A DNA stretch of 2,275 nt, taken from assembly GCF_003334405.1 (NCBI RefSeq), contig NZ_QOWM01000038.1; one strand, written 5' to 3'. This document shows, piece after piece, positions 421-1,335 of the stretch (positions within the stretch are counted from its first letter, which is position 1; every line of letters starts with the position of its first letter). A program made the position numbers and the translations under genes. Below the pieces are notes generated by a model that was given only the letters and a program-made list of their open reading frames with translations, was not told where the DNA came from and did not search any database. The DNA comes from Escherichia coli (lineage in GTDB: Bacteria; Pseudomonadota; Gammaproteobacteria; Enterobacterales; Enterobacteriaceae).

Positions 421-454
421 AAACATGAGTGATTTTATGTTGATCTCATGTTTT
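413..454 (+). promoter_or_regulatory. Probable pir promoter/operator: -35 TTGCCA (413-418), 17-bp spacer, -10 TATGTT (436-441), overlapped by inverted half-iterons AAACATGAG (421-429) and CTCATGTTT (445-453)
   Basis: Hexamers and spacing read directly from the sequence; the 9-bp arms are exact reverse complements. pi autorepresses pir in R6K by binding an inverted repeat of half-iterons in the promoter (established knowledge). Confidence 0.45.
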
Positions 455-492
455 TGGGTGGTAGAATGATGTCATCTACAGGTGGAATGATG

Positions 493-1335
493 ATGAAGCT
501 GAATATTTATATGAACCTGGCTCAAAAAACTAAAATCCGGCATCGAAATGAACTGAATTTAACGCTTGCACAGTTACCACTCGCAGCAAAGCGGGTTATG
601 TATATGGCGTTAGCCTCTGTTGATAGTCGTAAGCCGATAGAAACAGGTCAGGTATTCAGGGTCAGAGCAGATGATTTAGCGTCTGCGGCGGATATTGAAA
701 TATCTGTAGCGTATAAACAATTAAAAGATGGTGCAAAGTTATTAAGAGGTAGTAGTTTAACTTTGACTGGTGATGATATTATAGCTCTCTCCGATGAACT
801 AAATTTACCTTATGGTTCCAGGAACAGGCCATCTGAAATTGATTTATCAATAACAGATTATTGTGCATATTTTAATAATGAAGGCTATCTGGAGTTAAGA
901 TTTTCTCGCGTCATTGAGCCTTACATATCAAGTTTGCTGGGTAACAAATATAAATTTACTACACAGCTATTGACGTCTTGTCTGAGATTGAGCGGTCAAT
1001 ATTCATCTGCATTGTATCAGTTGATAAGAAAATATCACTCGAAGTTTTCTGGCAAAAATAGTTTCATCATTTCCCTGAATGAACTTAAAGAGGAAATTAT
1101 CGCCTATACTTTTAAAGATGATGGAACAATAGAGTATAAGTACCCTGATTTCCCGATATTTAAACGCGATGTGTTGAATAAAGCTATCGCTGAAATAAAG
1201 AAAAAAACGGAAGTTAAAGAATTAACATGTGCAACATATAAAAAAGATGGAAGGAAGGTTAGTAGTTTGATCTTTGAATTTGTTATTGAAGAAAACGTGT
1301 TCCCTGAAGAAGGTATGCCTGAATCTGAAAACTGA
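493..1335 (+). CDS. pir: Replication initiator protein pi (R6K/IncX-type Rep). Maximal ORF starts at 448; alternative in-frame starts at 466, 469, 487, 490, 493, 511
   Basis: Translation contains KTKIRHRNELN, LAQLPL, AKRVMYMALA, IEPYISSL, KFTTQLLT, SLYQLIRK, EYKYPDFPIFKRDVLNKAIAEIKKKTE, which I recognise as near-identical blocks of R6K pi, and it sits immediately downstream of the iterons. Start 493 chosen because AGGTGG (480-485) lies 7 nt upstream and the 448 ATG falls inside the operator repeat at the predicted transcription start. Stop TGA at 1333-1335. Confidence 0.88.
   Translation: MKLNIYMNLAQKTKIRHRNELNLTLAQLPLAAKRVMYMALASVDSRKPIETGQVFRVRADDLASAADIEISVAYKQLKDGAKLLRGSSLTLTGDDIIALSDELNLPYGSRNRPSEIDLSITDYCAYFNNEGYLELRFSRVIEPYISSLLGNKYKFTTQLLTSCLRLSGQYSSALYQLIRKYHSKFSGKNSFIISLNELKEEIIAYTFKDDGTIEYKYPDFPIFKRDVLNKAIAEIKKKTEVKELTCATYKKDGRKVSSLIFEFVIEENVFPEEGMPESEN

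Follow-up and report, generated by a model that had tools for sequence, protein, structure and literature searches.

An IncX/R6K-type replicon encoding a pi initiator

Judged from its sequence, the window (the whole stretch of 2,275 nucleotides analysed here) is a replicon of the IncX/R6K type, in which 22-bp iterons are followed by a presumed operator consisting of a half-iteron inverted repeat and then by pir. The iterons, the promoter, the SD-like sites, the ATGs and the pir coding sequence described below lie on the plus strand; no strand is assigned to the operator. Four perfect tandem iterons (TTAAACATGAGAGGATTTGCCG) occupy positions 170–257 with a spacing of 22 and represent putative initiator binding sites of the gamma-origin type. 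Two adjacent 9-mers resembling DnaA boxes (TTATGCACA and ATATCCACA), each with one mismatch, are located at 294–313 between the iterons and pir; the number of such one-mismatch sites does not exceed chance expectation, being equalled in 43 of 200 shuffles.

The pir frame is open from after a TGA at 430–432 and is closed by the TGA at 1333–1335. Its product matches the R6K pi structure (PDB 2NRA, chain C) over the full length with an E value of 2.6e-110, and precomputed Pfam assignments place Rep3_N (PF01051) and Rep3_C (PF21205) in an identical protein (P0001), in all close homologues and in the called genes. The ORF is recognizably a pir homologue encoding a Rep_3 initiator pi, and one more member of the known R6K/IncX pir family. 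Matches to NCBIfam are below threshold, with 69.6 bits for RepM (cut-off 250) and 21.9 for RepE (cut-off 342); these models describe other Rep_3 subfamilies, no pi-specific model gave a score, and the informative value of the scores is low. Among the NCBIfam models there is none that settles the N-terminus of pir.

The whole window is found at approximately 99% identity in six PLSDB plasmids, from E. coli, to which MOB-suite assigns no replicon type. The part comprising the origin and pir (positions 1–1324) is present in only 6 of 72,556 PLSDB plasmids, and positions 1325–2275, starting from the last pir codons, are 96–99% identical to roughly 500 IncX4-type plasmids, which suggests that the window is a mosaic resulting from the swap of a replicon module onto an IncX4-like backbone. 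Downstream of pir, a GC-rich terminator-like hairpin followed by a T-run (1849–1867) separates a small ORF (1348–1752) from a DUF2726 gene.

Presumed operator and promoter upstream of pir

The promoter-proximal iteron copy (397–420), whose ATG at 403 is in frame with pir but cut off from it by the TGA at 430–432, directly adjoins the presumed autoregulatory operator (421–453). The latter is a perfect 9-bp inverted repeat, with the arms 421–429 (AAACATGAG) and 445–453 (CTCATGTTT) 15 nt apart, and both arms are invariant in our alignment of the region (alignment A1). The right arm is the reverse complement of the iteron core AAACATGAGA, and its CATG core contains the ATG at position 448.

A sigma-70-like promoter spans positions 440–467, with a -35 element TTGATC (440–445), a 16-nt spacer and an extended -10 element TGgTAGAAT (459–467). 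It obtains the top score in the region (10.8), and the equivalent position is top-ranked at each of the 17 loci that were scored, of which 16 come from relatives spanning IncX1, X3, X4, X5 and untyped groups. The layout is conserved in these relatives, with a -35 element next to the right operator arm, a -10 element just beyond this arm, and predicted transcription starts 12–28 nt before the homologous ATG. From the promoter consensus, the pir transcript is predicted to start near position 474. The operator arms bracket the -35 element at conserved positions, a geometry that autorepression by initiator dimers requires, and we suggest, by analogy, that such repression may operate here. Pir-binding inverted repeats and autoregulation are described for the pir promoter of R6K (PMC12930497). 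We also note a Dam methylation site, GATC (442–445), within the -35 element TTGATC and touching the right operator arm, where relatives carry TTGACT.

A second promoter-like pair, consisting of TTGCCA (413–418) and TATGTT (436–441) separated by 17 nt, scores 10.3 compared with 10.8 for the conserved promoter, and 9/12 in another scan. It was rejected as the main promoter, as its -10 element is destroyed in L023, L024 and L030 alike and none of the relatives has a top-ranked promoter at the corresponding position. Folding of the leader RNA (474–560 and 448–560) yields structures that are no more stable than those of shuffled sequences (z +0.77 and +0.99, respectively), and thus reveals no sign of a regulatory hairpin.

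Seven in-frame ATGs and their ribosome-binding sites

The original prediction for this locus was that seven in-frame ATGs cluster at the 5' end of pir, and all coordinates (448, 466, 469, 487, 490, 493 and 511), the common frame and the Shine-Dalgarno (SD) motif AGGTGG at 480–485 are verified. Seven ATGs within 22 codons contrast with three in the other 273 codons (binomial P of approximately 3e-9), and among 2000 shuffles of the window that preserve dinucleotides, only one contains seven in-frame ATGs within any 66 nt. The cluster is real and statistically unusual, but its explanation is ordinary, being one of annotation ambiguity rather than new biology.

SD sites were scored with a simple home-made model that combines duplex stability and spacing. 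As had been predicted, ATG 448 lies inside the operator repeat and is devoid of an SD; the model finds no usable SD before ATG 448 or before ATG 511. The latter (511–513) encodes a conserved internal methionine, which corresponds to Met7 of R6K pi; it is not a start, and zero database entries begin here. The triple ATG (487–495) is preceded by AGGTGG, which serves all three codons and is better spaced for 490 and 493 than for 487.

The ATGATG at 466–471 begins within the promoter: ATG 466 is composed of the final A and T of the -10 element TAGAAT (462–467) together with G468, and ATG 469 follows directly. The two codons lie upstream of the predicted transcript start and are probably non-coding. 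Only 490 and 493 had been considered well served by an SD, and this assessment holds for the spacing of AGGTGG; it overlooked an SD-like GGGTGG (456–461), located within the promoter spacer 4 nt before ATG 466, which serves 466 and 469 with near-optimal spacing. The predicted pairing of GGGTGG with the 16S rRNA (dG -7.1 to -9.1) is at least equal to that of AGGTGG. Transcripts from the conserved promoter probably do not include the motif. Thus, the case against 466 and 469 relies on the position of the promoter, the stop codons present in relatives and the non-coding substitution pattern, and not on a missing SD.

The two ATGATG blocks share a 12-mer, GGT[A/G]GAATGATG, which is present in two in-frame copies at a distance of 21 nt. 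Tandem duplication of 21 bp in frame was considered as the source of both blocks, but the match is confined to the first 12 nt (11/12); by eye, the next 9 nt of the two blocks are identical at 0/9 positions. Slippage of ATG triplets, together with a short insertion relative to the closest relative (L017), appears to fit the blocks as well as duplication does.

The N-terminus of pi in relatives

Met1 of R6K pi (PDB 2NRA) aligns exactly with codon 493, such that residues 16–286 of the query correspond to residues 1–271 of the chain; when residues are counted from 493, their numbers agree with those of R6K as far as Met36 and Met38. The N-terminus common to relatives is M-[KR]-[LIV]-K-x-x-M, the two methionines of which are encoded by 493 and 511. 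Among the 22 homologues retrieved, 14 have an N-terminus of the form M-[KR]-[AILV]-[KV]-x-x-[MK] that matches 493, and three more start at the methionine aligned with 511. The extra ATGATG before 493 (ATG 487 and 490) falls within a stretch of 3–7 nt that, in alignment A1, has no counterpart in five relatives; relatives outside the subgroup of 95–100% identity have a single ATG and no extra triplets.

Reading from the DNA rather than from annotations, we find an in-frame stop upstream of the homologous ATG at a distance of 2 codons in L017 (the closest relative, with an 86% identical protein), 1 codon in L018, 8 in L019, 5 in L008 (R6K-like), 10 in L006, 9 in L004, 5 in L014, and 1 each in L011, L013 and L015. 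The upstream frame is open in L003, L005, L007, L009 and L010, where the upstream peptides run through iterons and operator and are mutually unrelated. Conserved homologue N-termini extending upstream of 487, which would have contradicted the original prediction, were looked for and none was found; the N-terminus at 487–493 thus survives. The predicted region stands, and is refined to 493 by homology and by the variation within the lineage, ATG 487 not being conserved (GTG in L023).

In L017 (951–977), an ATG within the -10 element (TAGAATG) opens an upstream ORF of seven codons, the TGA of which overlaps the ATG of pir (ATGA) in a coupling-like arrangement. This arrangement is probably fortuitous, since it is missing from L018, L019 and L006.

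Substitutions in closely related variants

Three variant lineages, L023/L026 (Salmonella), L024/L025 and L030, are 95–98% identical to the window and have no indels. In these variants, positions 448–492 diverge about five-fold faster than 493–1332 and exhibit no synonymous bias. L023 (95.6% identical) has six substitutions within the 45 nt of 448–492, mostly at second codon positions (one synonymous, five non-synonymous), compared with 23 substitutions within the 840 nt of 493–1332, 16 of which are at third positions (17 synonymous, six non-synonymous). The two regions differ in both rate (Fisher P 0.002) and type (0.018) of substitution in L023, and L024 and L030 point in the same direction, these tests being based on few substitutions within 448–492 (6, 2 and 3 in the variants). 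The rate and type of substitution change at 493, and therefore selection on the protein sequence begins at or next to 493.

The -35 and -10 hexamers of the 440–467 promoter are unchanged in L023, L024 and L030, and ATG 490 and 493 are kept in all subgroup variants. The SD before 490 and 493 is kept or strengthened in three of three variant lineages. In L023, where ATG 487 is replaced by GTG, the substitution 482 G>A destroys AGGTGG, and A>G changes at 486 and 487 create GGGGTGAT, the spacing of which is optimal for 493 but too short for 490. The ribosome-binding site for 493 thus seems to have been rebuilt in compensation. The upstream GGGTGG becomes stronger in L023 and weaker in L030 (-9.1 to -5.2), as would be expected for drift.

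Additional changes are also observed in the leaders of these lineages. Both SD-like elements of L023 (window-equivalent positions 454–462 and 483–491) have changed to the same 9-mer, TGGGGTGAT, each predicted to pair with the 16S rRNA at approximately -12 kcal/mol; possible causes of this parallel change are chance, selection, and gene conversion involving both of these short repeats. The TGA at 430–432 is lost in L023, L024 and L030, and their ORF continues upstream through the ATG of the promoter-proximal iteron (403–405). In L024 and L030, TTG 454 is changed to an additional in-frame ATG. The frame from 448 to 493 is preserved and free of stops in every member of the 95–100% subgroup. When metagenome and genome contigs were scanned with exact patterns for further leader variants, one near-identical contig (L027) was retrieved; another candidate, from a Rhodobacteraceae MAG (L028), was discarded as an unrelated chance match.

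Initiation of pir

We consider it likely that pir starts within the triple ATG at 487–495, with 493 as the ancestral and conserved start, 490 probably co-used and 487 used little or not at all, and with the upstream ATGs as regulatory by-products. The best supported coding sequence comprises positions 493–1335 and encodes a protein of 280 aa with the Rep3_N and Rep3_C domains. This reading builds directly on the N-terminal homology, the stop codons found upstream in relatives, the shift in the pattern of substitutions at 493 and the conserved position of the promoter. Transcription from TTGATC/16 nt/TAGAAT would begin near 474 and yield an mRNA lacking 448, 466 and 469. Such an mRNA would open with AUCUACAGGUGGAAUGAUGAUG, namely, the SD AGGUGG followed by the triple AUG. 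We infer the relative use of 487, 490 and 493, with 490 probably also serving as a start; the only difference between products initiated at the three codons would be one or two additional methionines at the N-terminus. ATGs 448, 466 and 469 would be by-products of regulatory DNA that happen to be in frame, with 448 located in the operator arm through which, by analogy with R6K, pi would repress its own promoter. ATG 511 would encode the conserved Met7, without a ribosome-binding site.

Several considerations weigh against this reading. The alternative pair TTGCCA/TATGTT would put 448–469 on the mRNA, as may transcripts reading through from promoters further upstream. If 466 is transcribed, the model predicts that pairing of its SD-like site, which is stronger still in L023, is no weaker than that of the site preceding 487–493. 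The unbroken frame between 448 and 493 throughout the 95–100% subgroup also counts against it. We have also weighed an arrangement in which pir gives rise to two N-terminal isoforms, the additional form being 8–9 residues longer and initiated at 466 or 469 via GGGTGG. The transcripts required would originate before position 456, whether at the alternative promoter or as read-through out of the origin region, and the duplicated SD-ATGATG module would constitute a two-pi device. The repeated in-frame 12-mer, the strength (-7 to -9 kcal/mol) and near-optimal spacing of the SD-like site before 466, the parallel change of both L023 sites to the same 9-mer, the frame between 466 and 493 that is open in all 95–100% variants, and the calling of 466 by some annotation pipelines all speak for two isoforms. 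In contrast, ATG 466 overlaps the -10 element of a positionally conserved promoter, two in-frame stops separate the 466-equivalent from the pir start in L017, the closest relative, positions 448–492 evolve like non-coding DNA, L030 has a weaker upstream SD-like site, and no homologue has a conserved extension. Collectively, we regard a second isoform of this kind as unlikely. Its functional version, in which the SD-ATGATG modules (457–471 and 480–495) would produce two forms of pi and the longer one, translated from transcripts initiated upstream of the operator-controlled promoter, would escape autorepression, appears very unlikely. If true, such a device would add a layer of copy-number control in this IncX sub-lineage that is distinct from the internal-start isoform of R6K.

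The tandem triple ATG itself may have been selected, for robust initiation or for tuning the dosage of pi, rather than having arisen by neutral slip-expansion of leader ATG triplets. The retention of 490 and 493 in all subgroup variants, together with a suitably spaced SD that is kept or rebuilt, is what selection would predict, yet the extra triplets are missing from every relative outside the 95–100% subgroup, 487 is lost in L023 and a single ATG suffices in relatives; selection on the triplet is, in our view, improbable. Leaderless translation from 448, by which TTGCCA (413–418)/TATGTT (436–441) would start the mRNA at or next to A448 to give an AUG-first message for a 295-aa protein, accords with the scores of the pair (9/12 and 10.3 in two scans), the location of 448 seven bases past the -10 element, the dispensability of an SD for leaderless mRNAs and a 295-aa call on 13 public contigs, but is hardly credible given that the essential -10 position-2 A (A437) is T and position 418 is G in all three variant lineages, that the equivalent promoter is top-ranked in no relative, and that the extension is not conserved, with stop codons interrupting its frame in most relatives.

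Annotation of the pir N-terminus

The public contigs that carry this exact gene disagree on its start, which is called at 493 on 180 contigs, at 490 on 107, at 487 on 47, at 448 on 13, at 466 on seven, at 469 on two and at 511 on none. Consequently, 334 of the 356 contig-level calls fall at 487, 490 or 493, and 22 (about 6%) are over-extended to 448, 466 or 469. Even among five complete RefSeq plasmids with identical DNA in this region, the annotated start is 490 in three, 487 in one and 466 in one. The expectation that automated annotation would over-extend the N-terminus is thus borne out in relatives, where calls of 331–337 aa are observed, but applies to this gene in only those 22 calls. 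Over-extension is more severe in relatives than in this gene, and the over-long calls are of 331 aa in L003 (CP123379) and L007 (NZ_CP032305) and of 337 aa in L010 (IncX3 pKpN06-NDM7), with about 30–50 (32–47) extra N-terminal residues that run through iteron, operator and -10 sequences; in the sister records L014 and L005, the short start is annotated.

The same gene therefore exists in public databases with six N-termini, giving proteins of 280, 281, 282, 288, 289 and 295 aa. Inconsistent pir N-termini split protein clusters and could mislead replicon typing, the design of expression constructs and structure prediction. A harmonizing rule for IncX pir genes would be to place the start at the methionine that aligns with Met1 of R6K pi, 12 residues before T-K-[IV]-R-H-R-N-E. 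The value of this analysis is mainly practical, for annotation, since the biology is the expected R6K-type arrangement and opens no new question.

Comparison with R6K and other IncX replicons

The gene closely resembles pir of R6K (IncX2) in its N-terminal layout, which, numbered from 493, comprises Met1, Met7, K12-T-K-I-R-H-R-N-E, Met36 and Met38. The 22-bp iterons with a AAACATGAG core, the succession of an iteron and a half-iteron inverted repeat at the promoter, and the small ORF after pir are likewise shared. The two systems are nevertheless distinct: the protein is approximately 65% identical to R6K-like pi (64–65% for P0011, P0012 and P0015), the plasmid has four tandem iterons whereas R6K has seven, the sequence of the iteron tail differs, and the leader is 3–7 nt longer with two extra ATGs and an ORF that is open upstream through the promoter.

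R6K produces full-length pi as well as a short, negatively acting form, pi30.5, which lacks the N-terminal 37 residues (PMC6854812, citing York 1992 and Wu 1997). The original prediction is therefore right in substance that R6K pir gives rise to more than one polypeptide. A role of the cluster at 448–513 as their source, which had been considered possible, is not supported, since the R6K start lies 37 codons inside the gene and maps outside the cluster, and the sequence before 493 is not conserved as coding sequence. The start of the short pi of R6K is Met38, which corresponds to ATG 604 here, with Met36 at ATG 598. Both lie within ATG-TAT-ATG (598–606), which is homologous to the R6K internal start region and encodes part of the conserved motif RVMYMALA. 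An SD-like AAAGCGGGT is present at 588–596; within the simple model, the SD-like AAAGCGGGU approximately 6 nt before ATG 604 pairs at about -5.4 kcal/mol. By analogy, an isoform of the R6K type, if any, would arise at 598–606. We note that RVMYMALA is found in R6K- and IncX5-like relatives, and that other groups have RVLCLALV, RVLFLALC, RILFMAMA (which keeps one methionine) and others.

With the other IncX pir genes (IncX1, X3, X4 and X5), the gene shares the arrangement of promoter and operator as well as the location of the start codon. The annotation problem is also common to these genes, in which in-frame ATGs derived from operator, iteron or -10 sequences give rise to over-long calls. Unlike in this plasmid, a stop codon is located shortly upstream of the true start in most other IncX pir genes, and the ambiguity is correspondingly smaller.
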